Origin: Escherichia coli
GTDB taxonomy: Bacteria; Pseudomonadota; Gammaproteobacteria; Enterobacterales; Enterobacteriaceae
DNA: 64,000 nt
NCBI RefSeq assembly: GCF_011045215.1
Contig: NZ_CP049201.1
Reading direction: 5' to 3' (one strand)
Shown here: piece after piece, positions 20,663 through 31,997 of the stretch
Position numbering within the stretch: position 1 is the stretch's first letter
How the letters are laid out: every line of letters starts with the position of its first letter
The notes under the pieces: model-generated
The model's input: only the letters and a program-made list of their open reading frames with translations
Database searches by the model: none
Told to the model about the DNA's origin: nothing
Made by a program: the position numbers and the translations under genes

Positions 20663-21166
20663 TCAAAAACCGCTGTAGCCAAAGTTACGCTGGCCTGATG
20701 CTTTAGTGTCGAGCTTCGTCAAATAATCCAGACGTACCAATAAGCGCTGGTACTGCTCAGGGAAATCAGGATCGTTAATATCCAGGATGTAACGCCCATT
20801 AGTAGGGAAATGAACTAATCCCTGGTGATCTTCCAGTTCCAACCCTAAGGCACTGTACCAGGCTCCGGTAATTAACCCTCTCAGGGTGTCAGAGCGCTCA
20901 TAGTCTCCCAGGTGGTAATAGGCGTCTTTGTTAAACAACAGGCAGACGTGATAATGACATTTAAAGGACTGCGTATATTCTTTCGCCCAGATAATACAAA
21001 CCGACGTTGCGTAGGTGCGTTTGCCTTGTTGTTTTTTACGGTGTTGATCTGCATTAATTTTCGCATTCAGCGAGTTACGGAAACGAGATATTTCTCCGGG
21101 GGTCAGGTTAGGAAAACAGGTAATGGTATCCCCGTTGTCAATCACAGGAGGGTAATGGAGATCCAC
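20663..21166 (-). CDS. YfjJ/YagK-like (inovirus Gp2-type) prophage protein
   Basis: 167 aa; resembles the CP4-57 YfjJ family and the paralogue at 21739-22302. Confidence 0.5.
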   Translation of the reverse strand: MDLHYPPVIDNGDTITCFPNLTPGEISRFRNSLNAKINADQHRKKQQGKRTYATSVCIIWAKEYTQSFKCHYHVCLLFNKDAYYHLGDYERSDTLRGLITGAWYSALGLELEDHQGLVHFPTNGRYILDINDPDFPEQYQRLLVRLDYLTKLDTKASGQRNFGYSGF

Positions 21167-21280
21167 CCGTATTGCTGTTATTCTGGAAGTATTTTTAATA
21201 TTCGTATTGATAGTTCTCAGAGATATATCACACTCTAGATATTTTAATTAAGTATCAGTTCGATATCGGCATATTGTACA

Positions 21281-21644
21281 CTACCTCTGGTAGATGATGA
21301 GATCAGATACAGGGATCAACTGACGGTGAGCGCAGTCCCCACATTTTATCCAGGGCTTACTGCATATTCCCAACAGCCATTCGTTAGCCAGGTAGACGAA
21401 TACCCTTTCCGCTGGTTTTGCTTTCCCATCGAAGGGCCCATACATCATCACGCCCGCGAAACAGTCGACAAAATAACGCAACTTTCTCATCCGTGGATAA
21501 TACGAAAACGCACTGCACAGGGCTCTGCGGTTTACGTCGCCATTCAATCCCATGAGCTTCAAGTAATGAGACCAGCCGGGTATTTTCTGCCCGCAGTACT
21601 GCTAGTTCATCGCTGTCAGATTTATAAACCATATGCGTTATCAC
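21281..21644 (-). pseudogene. Fragmented gene remnant (two overlapping minus-strand frames)
   Basis: ORFs 21281-21562 and 21384-21644 lie in different frames and overlap; consistent with a frameshifted relic. Confidence 0.3.
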
Positions 21645-21738
21645 TTGTACCTGTCTCCCGGCGGCACCACGACTGAAATTCGTGTGAAGGCAAATCCACG
21701 CGATAACTTACGATAGTTCGGACATAAGCCCCCATAAT

Positions 21739-22302
21739 TCAGTTATGTCGTGGTCGGCCGCGGTTACTTTTTTCGGGAAGCCTGCTACGCCCCAGAATAA
21801 TACCGTGTTCTTTCTGATCCTGTTTCGCCAGATAGCTAAGGGCGTAACGTAAGTCGTCTACCGCAGATTTATCACTATAGTGAATTACATGATCGATACG
21901 CACCGGGTATTTATCTTTAGCCCGGCACAGGTGAAAATAACCCTCCCCTTCCGTGATCCGCCTCCAGATATCTCCCAGTTGCCTGGATATCTGATAAGAG
22001 TTCTTGTGACGTTGTCCATCCAGATAGCCGATAAAATGAATATGAAGCCCTTTGTCTGGTGTATATTCCATTACCCAGTAATATCCCGCCAACATCGTCT
22101 GGGTTTCGCTAAGTAAGCGGTACATTTCCATACACATACTGTGCTTACAGGAAAGACCAAAACTGGGCGTGTCTTTCCTGTAAGCAAAATCAATTCTGAA
22201 AGGTAACAGTTTAGAAAAACGTTGAAACAGACCTTCCATGTGTTCATTCACATCTTTCAGAATCGCGAAATTCATTTCGTAATTGGGATTGGCATTATAC
22301 AT
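21739..22302 (-). CDS. YfjJ/YagK-like (inovirus Gp2-type) prophage protein
   Basis: 187 aa; family resemblance to CP4-57 YfjJ; prophage gene context. Confidence 0.55.
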   Translation of the reverse strand: MYNANPNYEMNFAILKDVNEHMEGLFQRFSKLLPFRIDFAYRKDTPSFGLSCKHSMCMEMYRLLSETQTMLAGYYWVMEYTPDKGLHIHFIGYLDGQRHKNSYQISRQLGDIWRRITEGEGYFHLCRAKDKYPVRIDHVIHYSDKSAVDDLRYALSYLAKQDQKEHGIILGRSRLPEKSNRGRPRHN

Positions 22303-23240: not shown

Positions 23241-24692
23241 TCAGAGGTCAAAGTTAGGTGCGACACACAACGTTTTTCCCTCAATAACCGGTACAACTCT
23301 GTTTTGTTCATACAGTAAATCCAGTAACCAGTTGATTTTATCCTTTTTCCGGAAACGGTTCGGGCCACGCTGTAAAATGTCATTTTTTTTCATACAGAGG
23401 ATCCCCTTCTCAATGCAATAGCTTTTTATCCAGTTGAAAAGTTCAAGCTCCTCTGGAATGAGTCGCACAGGTACGGTCAGGGCGGAGTTGTCAAAAGTTA
23501 ACGGATTAGACAACCGCACATACTCATTACCGTACCATATTGCTAATTCTCTCGCCATTTCTGCAGTGTAAGGGGAAATCTCCCCCTCTTCACCGCTCGA
23601 ATGGTAAATAAGTCCTGCCAGTCTTGCCATATACTCTGCATTTTTAGCAGCATATTCCCGGCAATGTCTTAAAGGCCCCAATCCCCCCAGCTTCGATTCC
23701 ACATCATTGTAATAATCCGTCCAGATTCTGGCAGCCTGAGGAGAAAAGTGAAGGCAACGTCGTTCACCACTCATCGCCAGACTTTCATCAATAAGCTCAT
23801 TGATCCTCTCTTCAAACAAATCCTGATACTGTGATGAATAATTATCTCCGGTTATTATCCTTGTCCCCTGCGTTGATGTTGGTTGACACATCAAAAACCT
23901 TGCATGATGTCCTGACGTTTTCACAAGTTCTTTTTTTCGCGTACAAAAACCTTTGTGGTAAACATCAGGCTGAATCATCACCGATATCGTCAGTCTTGGC
24001 TCCTTCAAATTAATTCCGGGAGATGATTTCCTGTCGATGAAAAGAGAACCTCCATCCCACAAAGTGTTAATAATTCCCAGTTTACTCATGGCCCGGCTGT
24101 CAAAAATTACCCCCCCTTCACTGGATACAAGAGCAAAAGAGCGATTGCTATCAGAGTAATATTTTAACATTCCCTCTATCGTTGTCTCATTAAAAATTGT
24201 TCGACGTATCTGCGGCGGAACAGGAGATTTATTCAGATGCGTTTCAAGCTCTGATTCTGTTGCCTTGTAATCTTTACCGGCACGAATCTCTTTATGAAAT
24301 TTTGATTCCAGCGCTTTTTGTTTTTGCTCCCATATTTCCTTTTCTGTACTGTAATTCTCAACCAGTTTCGCGTATTCTTCCGCCAGGGCTTCATCCCTGA
24401 GATAAAATGCTTTCATAAACACTTTATCCACGGTCGTTTTCCTTTCACCGGAATCAGCCAGAATCAGAGAGTAAAGATTAACAGGCCCATGTAAATTTCC
24501 AGGTCTGCACACGTCAATCTGATTCTGACAGGCAATTGAGATCGCTGTTAATGCGGATGTTGCCACCATAGCCAAAGGTGCCTGTGTATTTTTTTGAGTT
24601 TCAATTATTGCATTTCTCACCAGCGGTGGTAGTGCATATATCGGATAAGGATTTTCTGGTGCAAGTAAGCACATAAAAGCCTCTCTTTTCAT
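23241..24692 (-). CDS. DUF3987-domain protein (YfjI-like, primase C-terminal-like)
   Basis: 483 aa; sits downstream of alpA as yfjI does in CP4-57. Confidence 0.6.
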   Translation of the reverse strand: MKREAFMCLLAPENPYPIYALPPLVRNAIIETQKNTQAPLAMVATSALTAISIACQNQIDVCRPGNLHGPVNLYSLILADSGERKTTVDKVFMKAFYLRDEALAEEYAKLVENYSTEKEIWEQKQKALESKFHKEIRAGKDYKATESELETHLNKSPVPPQIRRTIFNETTIEGMLKYYSDSNRSFALVSSEGGVIFDSRAMSKLGIINTLWDGGSLFIDRKSSPGINLKEPRLTISVMIQPDVYHKGFCTRKKELVKTSGHHARFLMCQPTSTQGTRIITGDNYSSQYQDLFEERINELIDESLAMSGERRCLHFSPQAARIWTDYYNDVESKLGGLGPLRHCREYAAKNAEYMARLAGLIYHSSGEEGEISPYTAEMARELAIWYGNEYVRLSNPLTFDNSALTVPVRLIPEELELFNWIKSYCIEKGILCMKKNDILQRGPNRFRKKDKINWLLDLLYEQNRVVPVIEGKTLCVAPNFDL

Positions 24693-24892
24693 TAATGGGT
24701 TAGTAAAATAGCAGCAACTCCCGCTACAATAGCGAAAATAGCTGCTATTCAGACCTGATGCTCTGAGAAATACTGAGCATTTGTAGATCTGATGTTTAAT
24801 AAACCGATAAGGTTAATTCAGTGCAGACTGTATTATTTACCACGAAATATCATTCATATTTCTCATTCTTAATACCTCCAGAAATTATTTCA

Positions 24893-25090
24893 CTAATACC
24901 TTTCCCCCGGTCTTTTCCCTTTCTCCAGAACCATAGTGTAAATATTAACGGCCCCACGTAAATTTCCGGGGCTGCATACGTCAACCTGATTCTGACAGGC
25001 AATTGACATCGCTGTTAATACTGACATTGCAACCAGAGTCAGAGGTACTTGTTTATTGTATTGAGCTTTAATTATTGCCTTCCCTATCAT
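24893..25090 (-). pseudogene. Duplicated 5' fragment of the DUF3987 gene
   Basis: 65-aa ORF (…TLVAMSVLTAMSIACQNQVDVCSPGNLRGAVNIY…) paralogous to the N-terminus of the 483-aa protein (…LAMVATSALTAISIACQNQIDVCRPGNLHGPVNLY…); flanking DNA is also duplicated. Confidence 0.5.
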
Positions 25091-25316
25091 TGATGGTCAC
25101 GTATATACTGAATACGGCATATCCGGTTTGATGTAAGACATAAATGCTTCCTTTTTCGTAATACGTTTCGGTTATAGCAGCAATTACCGCTACAATAGCG
25201 ACAATAGCTGCTCTTTCAACAATGAATGCTGGAAATTCTGTTTATCAATTAAACTTCTGGCTAAATTGTTCTTATGCTTCTTTTTCCTCCTGAGGTGATC
25301 ACGTGATGACAAAAAC

Positions 25317-25625
25317 TTATCTGCTCATGGTCATATCTGAAGAAAGCGTATGTCGCACTTCGTCATTAACACCTTTGACTGCTGATCTGGCAGGTACAGT
25401 ATGTAAAGTAAGCCATTCGTCAATAGCTGATGAACGCCAGCCCACAGAACCACTACCAAGACGTACCGGCCTGGGGAAGGTTGCATCGTAGTATTTCGAT
25501 AACGGATTCATTTTTTCGTAAATTGTCGAACGAGATATACCTAACAATTGGCTCAGTTCAGGCATCCGTAAGATGCGTGAAGGAGTCCAGCAGTATCCGG
25601 ATTGATCTGGCATTTTATCCCCCAT
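25317..25625 (-). CDS. alpA: AlpA-family phage transcriptional regulator (HTH)
   Basis: ...RILRMPELSQLLGISRSTIYEKM... is the AlpA-type helix-turn-helix signature; start codon uncertain (25625, 25613 or 25697). Confidence 0.7.
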   Translation of the reverse strand: MGDKMPDQSGYCWTPSRILRMPELSQLLGISRSTIYEKMNPLSKYYDATFPRPVRLGSGSVGWRSSAIDEWLTLHTVPARSAVKGVNDEVRHTLSSDMTMSR

Positions 25626-25822: not shown

Positions 25823-26585
25823 GGTAATGACTCCAGTCAGTAGTACAGTGTTTTCGATAAATGAACCAATGGCTTTTCGTGAATTTCCAGGGAGCGTGAA
25901 AAGCAAATCGTTTTCCGGGCTGGTCGTTTGATGTGAGTACGAAGTGTCAGATTGTTGCGCTCAATGCGCCGGGTAAATATCTTGCCGACAAGATGCTTAT
26001 CCTGTGGCATTTCTCTGGTATAACTGCTCCGGTTGTCTCTGGTTATCATGCCTGTGGAGAATGGCTTCAGGAGTTCCGGCAACTCACGACATGTTTCATC
26101 AGTGCGAGGACCAAAAGTGTAAGCCAGCACACCTCCAGATTTGGTGTTATACGCATACCAGTGCCACTGCTGACGAGCTTTGTTTTCGACAAAACTCCAT
26201 TGTTCATCAAGTTCGCAGATAAGCGCCACATCGGCACTGACGTCTGGAGATGTGGTTACTTTGCGTGGTGAGCGTTTTATAAAGTGAGAATGACGGTGTT
26301 GATATCCACCTTCAGCGTTCTGGAGCTATCGCGAACCCGACTCCGTTATGAACCATTTCAACAATTTGCTCTTTGATGCCTGGTTTTCGGGTTTCGTAGA
26401 TGTAATTCAGTTGAAATACACACATTTGCAGGATTAGCACTGGAAACGCTCATGATCTGAGGTGCTGTGATCATAATGGTACACTTTATAGGAATTACAG
26501 CGGGGAGAATGTACTGTAACTGTTGCCATATGGTCTCCAGATACCAATAGAATATCACATTAATCTATCGTCAGAAGGCATCACC
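25823..26585 (-). mobile_element. IS1-family insertion sequence, divergent and degenerate (763 bp)
   Basis: Terminal sequence ggtaatgactcca at 25823 and gcatcacc at 26578-26585 match the IS1 inverted repeats; the 130-aa ORF 25837-26229 resembles the InsB C-terminus (MALICELDEQW...RIERHNL...); the InsA-like frame is interrupted. Confidence 0.6.
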
Positions 26586-26725: not shown

Positions 26726-28543
26726 ATGTATAATTTTATCACTATAATGTATGATGTCTTTTCATGTTTTGGTGTTCTGGCTAAAAACCAGAATACCCGT
26801 GACATCCGAAATATTAAAAATTTTTCCTCACATCAACATTCACTGGGCGACATGTTTGATGAATTAATAAACATTATTGATAAAGAACAAGTATTGAGTA
26901 CAGAACAACGAAAAGTTATATTTAGGAGATATGAAGATCTCTATGTTAAGCTAATGCACTATTCTGTTTTTACAGACAAAACACATCAAATAATAAAACA
27001 AAAATATTTTAATGACATTGTACCAATGATTCTCGCACTCGACATCAGGAACACATATCGCCCGGATAATGAGATGGCATTTTACTATCATATTCATTCT
27101 TTTCTCACTCAGATACCGGATAATGAGGATGATATATATCATGCTGCAAGGACATATCTGCGAAATTACATTAAGTTATGTTTATCCGGATACACACCAG
27201 CGAATGCGCATTTCAAAGATATCTTTGATGGCGTATATGAATTCATTCGTAATATTCGCAAAAACAGTACACCAGGAAAAACAAAACTTACCGCAACTAT
27301 CAACACATGCAAAGAAACCTGTAAACATCTGCTTTATTTAAGTAATGAAGACAAGGAAAAAATAATTTCTGACTTAGATAAAATTCAAGTTGCATGTTAT
27401 TATCTCACCATATTACTGGCTTTCGAAAGACGAACTTCATTAACAAGCGCCCTGGCAACTTTATATAAAATGCTGATAAGCGAAAGAGAAGTTTCAGAAT
27501 ATGAATGCCAGTTATTATATTTAACCAACCCAATAGATGTAATGAATATACTGAACAAACACATATATTACTTTCCTAATGAGAACTCACCATTTTATAC
27601 ACTGAAAATTGACAGTGCATTATCGTGGGAGGCCATTGACGCAATACGAGACTATAGTATTTCTGATATTTATCTTTATCCTGAACAAAAAACAATAAAT
27701 TGTGTCGTTGAGATTGAAAACATTGTCTTTGGCGGTTACATTTATACATTGAACAACGGCGTCACATTACAAAACATAGAAAACACTTTAAAAGATTCTT
27801 CATGCCATTATGTCTTAAATGGCTATACAGAATTTGTTAACTGTTTGATACAACTTACTTCAGGAAAGACTGAAAGTGTTCATCGCACCATCAATAAACT
27901 GAACTATGAGAAATTACCTTTTGGATTTATCATTGCCGCGTTTGCTATACTAAAGATAGCATTTAAAATAAAATTCAGTAAAAATCATGTAAATATCCGA
28001 GCATTATTAAATGACATCAATTATTTTATGACTTATCAGGGCGAGTCCATTAACCTTATTTCACTGGATCACGAATACCCAGAGTCCTGTCTTCAAAATG
28101 ACACAAACACATATTTATTAGGAAGAGTAATATTTCTGTATAACTCAATGATTTATAAGTTCATAAACTGTCAGGAACATGAAACCAATAACATTCACTC
28201 AGCTATGATAAATAACCTATTACAGGAAGTTGATATAGCCCTTGGTAAAATAAATAACATTATAGACAGCAGAAATATATCAACCCCCCATGAACTAGCA
28301 AATATTCTTACCCGCGAAAAAATACTTACAACACGGGAAAAAAAAGGAAACCTGATAAGCCTGTTTGATGGATTCACTTTATTCCATTGTGTTGGAATGA
28401 TAACCTTTCTTATCCATTATCTCAGAACACCTGAAGAAAAAGTTGAAAATATATTTATGTTATATGGTGCAGATAAAAACAATAAACTACGCAGAAGACT
28501 GATTTATGACGCACTAGGAATAATTCAGTCTCAGCAGGAGTGA
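26726..28543 (+). CDS. Hypothetical 605-aa protein, strongly AT-rich, no recognised domain
   Basis: Long uninterrupted ORF in low-GC DNA with AGGAGA 7 nt upstream of the ATG; Asn/Ile/Tyr/Lys-rich; two short hydrophobic segments; no P-loop or nuclease motif recognised. Confidence 0.6.
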   Translation: MYNFITIMYDVFSCFGVLAKNQNTRDIRNIKNFSSHQHSLGDMFDELINIIDKEQVLSTEQRKVIFRRYEDLYVKLMHYSVFTDKTHQIIKQKYFNDIVPMILALDIRNTYRPDNEMAFYYHIHSFLTQIPDNEDDIYHAARTYLRNYIKLCLSGYTPANAHFKDIFDGVYEFIRNIRKNSTPGKTKLTATINTCKETCKHLLYLSNEDKEKIISDLDKIQVACYYLTILLAFERRTSLTSALATLYKMLISEREVSEYECQLLYLTNPIDVMNILNKHIYYFPNENSPFYTLKIDSALSWEAIDAIRDYSISDIYLYPEQKTINCVVEIENIVFGGYIYTLNNGVTLQNIENTLKDSSCHYVLNGYTEFVNCLIQLTSGKTESVHRTINKLNYEKLPFGFIIAAFAILKIAFKIKFSKNHVNIRALLNDINYFMTYQGESINLISLDHEYPESCLQNDTNTYLLGRVIFLYNSMIYKFINCQEHETNNIHSAMINNLLQEVDIALGKINNIIDSRNISTPHELANILTREKILTTREKKGNLISLFDGFTLFHCVGMITFLIHYLRTPEEKVENIFMLYGADKNNKLRRRLIYDALGIIQSQQE

Positions 28544-28730: not shown

Positions 28731-29933
28731 TTATTTATTCACAATTTGAGACATCACATAATCCGCCCATGCCTGCATCATCGGTACACGCTGCTCCAGT
28801 AGATCAGTGCGATGATATGCCGCCTCAACCTTATTTTTCAGCGTATGAGCGAGCGCCCTTTCCGCCAGATCCCGCGAATACCCCTGTTCACTACACCAGT
28901 CCCTGAATGTTGAGCGAAAACCATGTGCCGTGGCAACTCGCCCCGGAATGTCACTGACGGCTTTCTTTTTACGCAGAAAACTTGTCAACACCATATCGGA
29001 AAGGATCTGCTGCTTTCTGGGTGAAGGGAACACCAGTTCATCATGCAGGCCACGTATATTTTCCAGAATGTAAATAGCCTGCCGGGATAAAGGAACACGA
29101 TGCTGTAGCCTAGCTTTCATTCTTTCTGCAGGTATAGTCCATACCCGCTTATGAAAATCAATTTCAGCCCAGCGCATTCCCCTGGCTTCGCCCGAGCGAG
29201 TTGCTGTAAGTATCACCATTAATAACAGTGCGCGGGTAACATTATAAGGTTCATCACTATACACACTGGTCGCCACAAAAAGCGGTAACTGCCTCCAGGG
29301 CATTGCGGGTTGGTGTTCATCACGTCCTCTTGTCTGCTGAGGAAGCAAATGGTCAACCACATCAACAGGATTTGCCACACAAAAACCGTGCGCCCATCCC
29401 CACTGCATAACAACATGAATGCGCTGTTTAACCCGGCTTGCCGTTTCTGACAAGGTTAACCAGACTGGACGCAATGTTTCTGCCACGTCCGCAGCCGTAA
29501 TCGAATCCAGCGTTTTTGCTCCCAGTTGAGGAAACGCGTAATTCTCAAGCGTCGATAACCACTGCCTTACATGCTTTGGATTTTCCCATCCAGGAGACAG
29601 TTCTGCATGTACACGCCTGGCTGCATCGGCAAATGTTGGGATAACGACTTTCTCAGATTCAGCCTTTTTAATCTCCAGAGGATCATCACCTGCAGCAAGT
29701 TGCTCTCGCATTATCCGGGCAGTACGTGCAGCTTCAGCAATACTGACCTCTGGGTAAGTTCCCAATCCAGCATTACGTCTTTTTTGTGTCACCGGACTTA
29801 CATAACGAAAAACCCATTTCCCCCGCCCCTTTACTGAAGAAGGATGAAGGGTCAGTCCGGTAATTCCCCCATGGGGCAATGGTTTGTCATCAGGTTTGAT
29901 ATGTCTTGCTTTCGTATCCGTCAATACTGCCAT
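28731..29933 (-). CDS. int: P4-type (tyrosine recombinase) phage integrase
   Basis: 400 aa; N-terminus MAVLTDTKARHIKP...; C-terminal catalytic region with HGFRST...; ends ...LAHT...AYHRTD...RVPMMQAWADYV, conserved in P4-family integrases. Confidence 0.9.
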   Translation of the reverse strand: MAVLTDTKARHIKPDDKPLPHGGITGLTLHPSSVKGRGKWVFRYVSPVTQKRRNAGLGTYPEVSIAEAARTARIMREQLAAGDDPLEIKKAESEKVVIPTFADAARRVHAELSPGWENPKHVRQWLSTLENYAFPQLGAKTLDSITAADVAETLRPVWLTLSETASRVKQRIHVVMQWGWAHGFCVANPVDVVDHLLPQQTRGRDEHQPAMPWRQLPLFVATSVYSDEPYNVTRALLLMVILTATRSGEARGMRWAEIDFHKRVWTIPAERMKARLQHRVPLSRQAIYILENIRGLHDELVFPSPRKQQILSDMVLTSFLRKKKAVSDIPGRVATAHGFRSTFRDWCSEQGYSRDLAERALAHTLKNKVEAAYHRTDLLEQRVPMMQAWADYVMSQIVNK

Positions 29934-30149
29934 ACGCTAATTCCCGTCACTCTGGTATGCCATCCAGTATGCCATTAGTCTCTCGCTTCACTAAGAATAC
30001 ATTAGATAATATCGGACAACAAAAAGTGTAATACATTGTTTATAATGAAATTATATAACACCCCTGGATTAAGTCAGATTTATTTCAGGCGGTCCCCCTC
30101 ACCGCCATATTTAAATAAATATCCTCCGGCATAGCCGGAGGTTTTTCAA

Positions 30150-30860
30150 ATGCGCCTATAAGGCTCTCTTACCAGCCGCGCCCTAACAGGCGCACACGAT
30201 CTGACATTTGCATCCAACTTCGTTACTTACGGCCCGTAAACGGGCTGCCCGGATAGGGAATCGATAACTGCTCTCCCATTTCATCCTCTTCAAGCTGGTG
30301 CTTTATGTAATCCTGTATCTTCGCCGTGTTCTTACCCACCGTATCGACGTAGTACCCTCTGCACCAGAACTCCCTGTTCCTGTATTTGAATTTCAAATCC
30401 CCAAACTGCTCATAAAGCATCAGACTGCTTTTCCCTTTCAGATATCCCATAAAGCCGGATACGCTCATTTTGGGCGGGATCTCCACAAGCATATGGATAT
30501 GATCTGCACAGCATTCAGCTTCAAGAATCCGTACGCTTTTCCACTCACACAGCTTTCTCAAAATACTGCCTATTGCTCTACGCTTCTCTCTGTAGAACAC
30601 TTGTCTTCGGTATTTTGGCGCAAAAACTATGTGATATTTACAGTTCCATCGGGTGTGCGCTAAGCTCTTTTCGTTCCCCATTGGGACCCCCTTTTGATTT
30701 CTTGTTTGACACTTGCAGTTGCCAGACCGCAAGGTGTTTTAACAAATCAAAAGGGGTTTTAATAACTGGCTCAAAGCTGAAAGCTTTCCGGAACCCCCAG
30801 CCTAGCTGGGGGTTTTCTGTGCACAAGAAGAGCCCGTACGAAAGTACGGGCTTTTTTTTC
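30150..30860 (-). mobile_element. IS200 element (ends approximate)
   Basis: tnpA flanked by palindromes (acggcccgtaaacgggctgcc at about 30232; gcccgtacgaaagtacgggc plus T8 at 30831-30858); boundaries not determined. Confidence 0.5.
30223..30684 (-). CDS. tnpA: IS200 transposase TnpA (IS200/IS605 family Y1 HuH transposase)
   Basis: MGNEKSLAHTRWNCKYHIVFAPKYRR...HIHMLVEIPP...YY motifs; near-identical to IS200 TnpA as recalled; start taken at Met17 of the 169-aa ORF. Confidence 0.85.
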   Translation of the reverse strand, partial: PMGNEKSLAHTRWNCKYHIVFAPKYRRQVFYREKRRAIGSILRKLCEWKSVRILEAECCADHIHMLVEIPPKMSVSGFMGYLKGKSSLMLYEQFGDLKFKYRNREFWCRGYYVDTVGKNTAKIQDYIKHQLEEDEMGEQLSIPYPGSPFTGRK

Positions 30861-31010
30861 GTATATTGCACACACCGGGTGCCCCCGCCCACGTCTGTTA
30901 GGGCGAGGGGAAATCGTGCACATCAACTGTCTGATTGCTCAGTCAACAATCAAAATGCGCAAGAGAGTACAGAACATATATGCGCTATCTGGTCACTTCC
31001 TGTAACTTCC

Positions 31011-31997
31011 TCACTTATTAAAATGCCCCCAACGGAAATACATGTCACATGCCATCATAAAATCGTTATGCCAGAGGAACCGACAATGGAAAAAATAGTA
31101 AATTAAGCACGGTACATAGCAGAGTAAAAAATAGGCTTCAAACCAAATCCGCCATTCCACAAGCGTTGCCAATACCGACACCAGCGTAATCCACATCACT
31201 TCAATAACCAGCAATATGAATAACCGAAGCCAAAGCGGCTTGGCAAAAAAGGTCGACAACGCATTTTCACTGGAGAAAAACAGATCGATTTCCTGCAAAA
31301 AAAGCCTGCCCAGAAAAGCGTACCGCTTGGAGAAGCGCAGAAAAAACAGATTAATCGCCAACACTACGCCACAAAGAATGAGCAATGCAATTATCGATTT
31401 AAACGTTAACCACTGCCCCTCTGTCACAAAAGAGTTACTGTTACGCAACGGGCTGATAGTAAGCAGGTTAACAACCGTTGAGATACAAACCGAAAGCAGC
31501 ACATAGCGAGTCAGACTTTTATATTTTACTTTTTTCGCTACTGAAATAGCGACCTGCTTGACATAACTGGTGCGGATCATCCGAAACAACAGAAAGATGA
31601 CCAACGGCCCAAGTAACGAAATCAGGAACAGCGCATATAACGAGGGTAGAAGCTGGTATAGCCCCCAACTCATTGCACTCAACATGATTAACGACAGAAA
31701 TCCTGCCACCAGAGGTTGTGTAAGAAATAATTCTATTTTGTGGTTCTGCTTTTTCTTAAACCACGAAAAATCGATATTCTTCGTGACGCATTTATAAGCC
31801 CAGTACGCCTTGAGATCAAAAATAAAATTATACAGCACCAGGGCCAGAATCCCACTAACTACACCAATATCCTCTGATGGAAAAGTAAACCCTGCATTTT
31901 TCCAATAAAAGCCTATCAGAATAAGTCCAATAGCATAAATGTATATCAGATTTCGTTTATCCTGAAAGCGAATAAAAGTTAAATAATCAGGAATCAT
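31011..31997 (-). CDS. Hypothetical polytopic inner-membrane protein (last gene of the biosynthetic cluster)
   Basis: 328 aa, multiple hydrophobic helices; start overlaps the stop of the upstream acyltransferase. Confidence 0.5.

Follow-up and report, generated by a model that had tools for sequence, protein, structure and literature searches.

A decayed second copy of the 5' end of yfjI, and the palindrome upstream of it, in an island family of Escherichia coli

The window analyzed here is a stretch of 64,000 nucleotides of Escherichia coli DNA (RefSeq assembly GCF_011045215.1, contig NZ_CP049201.1). Its minus strand carries a full-length yfjI-type gene (23241-24674), which encodes a DUF3987, helicase-like protein and was recognized from the open reading frame, Pfam, PHROG and RefSeq. 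The product has 477 amino acids from the start that RefSeq uses in a near-identical gene, while the open reading frame called mechanically extends to 24692 (483 amino acids). The protein belongs to the DUF3987/YfjI family: it matches Pfam PF13148 with 283 bits (cutoff, 27) over positions 1 to 363 of the 364 in the profile, it matches PHROG 2373 ("DNA helicase") at E = 8e-63, and RefSeq names it "YfjI family protein" in a 99.4% identical locus. NCBIfam and PDB sequence searches with YfjI gave no usable match.

The gene is part of an island that also contains, on the minus strand, an AlpA-family excisionase/regulator gene (25317-25613; PF05930, 68 bits; PHROG excisionase/regulator) and a tyrosine integrase gene (28731-29933; domains Phage_integrase, Phage_int_M and Arm-DNA-bind_3). 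The integrase gene abuts ycdU (28731-31997 region), and ARAGORN detected no tRNA or tmRNA gene in the window. The gap between the integrase gene and ycdU holds a full-length match to the Hfq-binding small RNA STnc490 (30691-30814; 146 bits). Between alpA and a 605-amino-acid open reading frame lies an IS1-family transposase pseudogene (about 25836-26529), which has a frameshift and an internal stop according to the RefSeq annotation of a 99% identical locus (L001). The 605-amino-acid frame itself is AT rich, lies on the plus strand (26726-28543), keeps its position in all related islands in versions of 1,614 to 1,818 nucleotides, and has no Pfam or NCBIfam match. Downstream of yfjI are two Gp2/YagK-YfjJ-like genes on the minus strand, one at 21739-22302 and a truncated one at 20663-21166. 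The DNA between them (about 21384-21644) retains the 5' stub of a gene for a TOTE-type archaeo-eukaryotic primase; two related loci (L004 and L006) have this gene at full length. This pair with its primase stub (20663-22302) is a second case of paired or truncated modules in the same island.

The preliminary description of this DNA had noted that the 5' end and the upstream region of the DUF3987 gene are duplicated in tandem. A repeat search of the window, a MAFFT alignment and blastn agreed that this duplication is real, diverged and direct. The repeat search returned two direct repeats, 24458-24690 versus 24925-25157 (233 nucleotides, 75% identity) and 24676-24749 versus 25142-25215 (74 nucleotides, 74% identity), which adjoin each other and have copy spacings of 467 and 466 bp. 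Local blastn joined 24405-24749 and 24882-25215 in one alignment of 346 bp with 73.4% identity (E = 3e-54, computed for a database of about 130 kb), so the similarity is not a short chance match. In the MAFFT alignment, the two copies, here called c1 and c2, were collinear over the upstream hairpin, the ribosome-binding site, the start codon and the coding sequence up to about codon 91. The repeat unit is thus about 335 to 370 bp long, contains the first 91 or so codons, the ribosome-binding site and the upstream hairpin of the yfjI gene, and is 73 to 75% identical between copies. As expected of a tandem segmental duplication, the two copies are adjacent, collinear and direct, with similarity far above chance, while about 105 bp of DNA for which no source was detected (24777-24881) lies where the end of the unit would be joined directly to its start.

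Both copies lie on the minus strand, and both are somewhat wider than the limits first given (24480-24720 and 24940-25200). Copy c1 (about 24405-24776) comprises the 5' codons of yfjI, the ribosome-binding site, palindrome 1 and about 30 nucleotides upstream of it; its upstream boundary was set by comparison with the c2 copy of a related island (L003). Copy c2 (about 24882-25215), delimited by alignment and in-register translation, is a pseudogene that retains the 5' end of a yfjI paralogue, together with its ribosome-binding site and palindrome 2. Along the minus strand from 5' to 3', alpA is followed by palindrome 2, c2, a spacer, palindrome 1, the ribosome-binding site and the intact yfjI gene.

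We then analyzed the coding capacity of c2. The 65-amino-acid N-terminal paralogous fragment described earlier exists as an open reading frame (24893-25090, minus strand) that starts at an internal ATG of c2 and is found in the open reading frame list and in RefSeq. It matches the DUF3987 profile at positions 1 to 42 of 364 only (32.7 bits; cutoff, 27) and is not a complete domain. RefSeq/PGAP labels such stubs "DUF3987 domain-containing protein," "hypothetical protein," or a pseudogene that is "incomplete; missing C-terminus," and the clusters of stub proteins span 49 to 87 amino acids. The ancestral ATG of c2 in the window is at 25139-25141, followed by a TGA at codon 15 (25097-25099) and a 10-bp deletion near 24926/24927. 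In-register translation showed other lesions in other lineages: L003/L004 have a TGA at codon 76, and in L005 codon 15 is TAA and the frame carries a deletion and a +1 insertion. The premature stops and frameshifts of c2 thus differ between lineages, as in a decayed pseudogene. A TAA at codon 89, at the end of the homology, is common to the c2 of every lineage, and the copy is truncated at about codon 89 to 91. It ends just past a GERKT motif, which is putatively Walker-A-like, with nearly the whole domain missing.

The substitution pattern of c2 was also analyzed. Between the c2 copies of the window and L003, substitutions at the three codon positions numbered 17, 8 and 8, with no excess at the third position. 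The corresponding numbers for the 5' end of the intact yfjI gene were 10, 6 and 10, which is only weakly biased in a low-power selection test, as the N terminus itself is variable. Amino acid identity to the K-12 outgroup was 39 to 45% for c2 and 48 to 55% for c1 (first 88 residues for c1), and c2 has thus evolved faster than c1. Copy c2 has decayed, and it is probably a noncoding 5' gene remnant with no function. Two stub variants (P0008 and P0017) are chimeric, with a c1-like 5' end and a c2-like 3' end, which suggests gene conversion between c1 and c2 in some strains.

The two copies are separated by a spacer of about 105 bp (24777-24881, minus strand), which was delimited by whole-genome search and blastn. 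The junction joins about codon 91 to this DNA, for which no homologue was detected, and such a junction fits illegitimate recombination, as had been proposed. The event is not specific to this genome, however; it is old, with a divergence of 25% between the copies, and the spacer occurs in 1,337 of 5,426 complete E. coli genomes. Local alignments of the spacer with alpA were not significant (439 and 82 of 500 shuffles scored as well), and blastn matched it to no other sequence in any of the fetched loci. The spacer could be a decayed 3' end of alpA or filler DNA. Its best-conserved part is a GGAGG followed after 8 nucleotides by a mini-open reading frame of 9 codons (MRNMNDISW*; 24837-24879, minus strand), seen in the alignment of lineages. 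Variable columns numbered 3 of 45 in this stretch versus about 17 of 79 in the remainder of the spacer, for three lineages and a region chosen post hoc, and the changes within the mini-open reading frame were one synonymous and one stop-to-stop. It could be a leader peptide or a chance occurrence. RNAalifold gave no indication of an attenuator formed by the mini-open reading frame and hairpin 1: none of the 79 predicted pairs had changed in a compensatory way, and the hairpin arms had no alternative partners. The suggestion that a promoter had been duplicated found no support either, as a sigma-70 consensus scan returned 6 sites versus 4.2 expected and none in the spacer. What is duplicated upstream of the gene is the ribosome-binding site and a conserved palindrome.

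The palindrome accounts for the short identical run reported earlier between the copies. The run is 15 nucleotides long and forms the core of a hairpin-forming palindrome (GCTATTnnnGCnATTnnTAGCGG); the conserved palindrome core is GCTATTTCCGCTATTAATAGCGGAAATAGC. Palindrome 1 (24708-24748, minus strand) was found by inverted-repeat search, folding, a pattern match at 24719-24742 and covariation. Its stem has about 18 pairs, of which 3 to 5 are G.U when the sense strand is read, and the sequence AUUUUAC comes next; the hairpin folds at -29.9 kcal/mol (z = -5.3). Palindrome 2 (25176-25212, minus strand), found by folding and a pattern match at 25185-25208, forms a hairpin without a U-tail. Folding is about as good on one strand as on the other, c1-type copies excepted. 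A classic intrinsic terminator was rejected: only part of hairpin 1 was flagged (4 U after the stem), and hairpin 2 and most homologues have no U-tail. Hairpins 1 and 2 of the window differ at one pair in a way (U-G to G-U) that looked compensatory, but this was also discarded, because other c2 lineages have G-A or G-G at that position. An Rfam scan of the window from 20 to 31 kb returned nothing relevant on the repeat; its sole match on the hairpin, to a plant microRNA model, was attributed to chance (24 bits against a gathering score of 110).

The palindromes coincide with breaks in the similarity between island variants. The homology between the window type and the L003 type ends exactly at the outer edge of palindrome 2 (25212), with 40% versus 90% identity on either side, as read from genome matches (H60-H68) that cover query positions 1 to 520, i.e., 24693-25212. 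Other mosaic breakpoints lie at about 24675-24750, at palindrome 1 and the start of yfjI.

To compare the locus with other genomes, we searched 5,426 complete E. coli genomes. The 2.5-kb region was present at a coverage of at least 80% in 1,024 of them, and the stretch of c2, spacer and hairpin was present in 1,338, so that roughly one in four complete E. coli genomes has this architecture. Every occurrence of the spacer was full length and part of the duplication, and a genome had up to three of them. Three diverged island lineages, namely, the window type, L003/L004 and L005, share the junction and the spacer, and loci L098 to L101 likewise have an identical architecture and junction. In the L003/L004 and L005-type lineages, the alpA gene is of a different, 75-amino-acid type. 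A scan of viral contigs found only two near-identical loci.

A neighbor-joining tree of the homologous segment of about 345 bp separated all c2 copies from all c1 copies as two clades, and K-12 yfjI lay far outside both. The c1 copies differed by 2 to 13% among lineages versus 25% between c1 and c2, and no other yfjI type came nearly as close to c2 as c1 did. The duplication has a single origin, and a single old event is what best fits the reciprocal c1 and c2 clades. The duplicated form dominates this yfjI clade (about 1,338 of 1,400 genomes). Unduplicated relatives occur in at most about 60 genomes and are represented by L006, in which alpA is followed directly by yfjI, and L008. Their single copy nests within the c1 clade, and its flanks are c2-like upstream and c1-like downstream of the palindrome. 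This pattern fits, but does not prove, a secondary loss of the duplication by recombination between the two palindromes. Mosaic recombination among island variants is frequent (L003 and L004, for example, have about 100% identity as far as palindrome 1 and 91% within yfjI), and arguments from the tree and from timing are soft for this reason.

The palindrome is not confined to the duplicated islands. The cryptic prophage CP4-57 of E. coli K-12 has this core as well, in the interval that separates alpA from yfjI and 50 to 75 nucleotides before the start of yfjI. When one genome of each species was scanned for the pattern, 88 stretches matched, of which about 70 were unassociated with alpA or yfjI, were not strongly palindromic and were discarded; many of these lie within coding sequence for hydrophobic A-I-x-A-I-L-A-A segments. 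Ten matches lay between alpA and yfjI homologues, in Escherichia albertii, Escherichia sp., an Enterobacteriaceae metagenome-assembled genome (MAG), Enterobacter, Siccibacter, Dickeya, Brenneria, Mangrovibacter, Phytobacter and Kluyvera. Five further matches, from Pseudomonas (four loci) and Serratia (one locus), lay 200 to 400 nucleotides upstream of alpA or yfjI, and the YfjI proteins of these loci are 31 to 43% identical to that of the window. The Pseudomonas palindrome sits upstream of alpA in a divergent intergenic region, which is at odds with a terminator. In a Thiotrichales MAG, the palindrome follows a radC-like gene. Among the fetched loci, it was found in L002 (3910-3934), L010, L011, L014, L029, L032 to L035, L041, L051, L053, L057, L064, L065, L069, L083 and L094.

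We then analyzed the pairing of the palindrome in 23 sequences. Base pairs were formed in 78.6% of the cells versus 71.3% in shuffles, and the covariation score was 0.243 versus 0.149 in shuffles; in neither case did any of 500 shuffles reach the observed value. Controls in which the position was slid gave 28 to 58% pairing. In the outer helix, which is outside the search pattern, 11 of the 16 pairs change on both sides. A literature search for the palindrome sequence found no description of it. The palindrome might serve as an operator, as an RNA element, or as an origin or site of helicase loading. We tentatively consider, as a reading that may well prove wrong, that the palindrome could be a cis-acting site (e.g., origin, helicase-loading site or operator) of alpA-DUF3987 helicase modules from Enterobacterales to Pseudomonas and Thiotrichales, that the E. 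coli islands would keep two functional copies of it, and that the palindromes would serve as junctions for module exchange and for loss of the duplication.

It is quite probable that the locus reflects one old illegitimate or unequal recombination event in an ancestor of the island family with the order int, alpA, yfjI and Gp2/YfjJ-like genes. The duplicated segment would have run from about the end of alpA to about codon 91 of yfjI. The upstream copy, c2, would have stayed right after alpA without almost the whole DUF3987 domain and then decayed, while the downstream copy, c1, would have continued into the intact gene. The arrangement would since have been passed on by inheritance, with recombination reshuffling the island variants and, now and then, removing the duplication by an exchange between c1 and c2. 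Two findings sit less easily with this explanation: some lineages keep c2 as an open frame of 75 to 87 codons, and the mini-open reading frame region of the spacer is unusually conserved. An origin of the similarity in chance or misassembly has practically no credibility; the modest identity of the copies could be cited for it and nothing further, and it would have to explain the E-value of the alignment over 346 collinear bases and the same structure in more than 1,300 independent complete genomes.

On the other hand, c2 may be what is left of the yfjI gene of another island that had already diverged and that recombined illegitimately with the resident one, e.g., when two islands had integrated in tandem and a deletion followed. 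The distance between c1 and c2, which is large next to that among c1 copies, would be expected in this case, and the island does show swapped modules, with different alpA types upstream of the same c2, as well as other paired remnants (the two Gp2/YfjJ-like genes and the primase stub). However, no full-length c2-type allele was found in the 5,426 E. coli genomes, in 72,556 plasmids or in a phage set, and the best full-length gene was 65% identical to c2 in amino acids and at most 77% identical in DNA. A protein database search returned only short proteins and missed the known full-length YfjI, so it was uninformative on a full-length c2-type protein. The closeness of c2 to c1 relative to all other yfjI types also argues against a second island, and the branch of c2 is longer than that of c1 relative to the outgroup, as decay after duplication predicts. 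We consider a second island unlikely, and because no full-length c2-type allele was found, a duplication that arose in situ is favored over the fusion of two diverged islands. It was also considered that the duplicated leader is kept for a function, with palindrome 2 and the mini-open reading frame regulating yfjI or the stub being made as a small protein. The dominance of the duplicated form in this yfjI clade would fit such a function, as would the retained ribosome-binding site and ATG of c2, the nearly invariant GGAGG and 9-codon frame, and the palindromes, which are 90 to 100% conserved among lineages versus 80 to 88% for the stub. Yet the c2 frame is broken differently in each lineage, RNAalifold detected no covarying leader structure besides the palindrome, promoter and terminator signals are at background, and unduplicated islands exist; moreover, the conservation contrasts are weak and post hoc, with only three independent lineages. 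Retention for a function therefore seems improbable, and more so than a second island.

With a single old duplication as the preferred reading, the locus can be compared with known systems. It shares the order int ... alpA, yfjI (DUF3987), yfjJ-like with CP4-57 of K-12 (b2624-b2625), and its tyrosine integrase, AlpA-family gene and yfjI make the island CP4-57-like, although the tRNA or tmRNA gene expected at a CP4-57-like integration site was not found in the window. The palindrome between alpA and yfjI is shared as well. CP4-57 differs in having no duplication, in a YfjI that is 48 to 55% identical to c1 over the first 88 residues, and in flanking DNA that cannot be aligned with the window. 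The RefSeq/PGAP stub WP_000579535.1 (65 amino acids) is the same open reading frame in the same place between AlpA-like and YfjI family genes; that annotation differs in treating it as a protein or an isolated partial gene, and it records neither the duplication, the palindrome nor the sharing among lineages. The int-alpA-primase/helicase modules of P4-like, PICI and PICMI satellites likewise combine an integrase, AlpA and a DUF3987 protein, and PF13148 is a primase marker for PICMI satellites (PMC10803314); the window island is likened to such phage satellites by its replication-module genes alone. We found no partial duplication of this kind described for P4-like, PICI or PICMI elements, and the literature on yfjI and on DUF3987 with AlpA contained no description of the duplication. 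Like partial-duplication remnants in general, the locus has two direct copies and a novel junction, and the copy that was truncated has decayed. It differs from them in its age and wide distribution, which are unusual for a dead remnant, and in the deeply conserved palindrome within the unit.

The duplication is real, ordinary, old and inherited, and only the palindrome is mildly novel. The duplication accounts for a small DUF3987 or "hypothetical protein" call that recurs in roughly one in four complete E. coli genomes and that is a dead stub, and the junction with its spacer provides a clean marker of one island family, including islands of O157:H7 strains. In itself the duplication matters little, and the palindrome, a by-product of the analysis, is more useful: with its conserved core and covarying outer stem, it is a mark of the alpA/yfjI module even in distant Proteobacteria, and mosaic breakpoints fall at its positions. 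Should it be an origin or an operator, it would give a direct handle for testing the replication or the regulation of these poorly understood islands.
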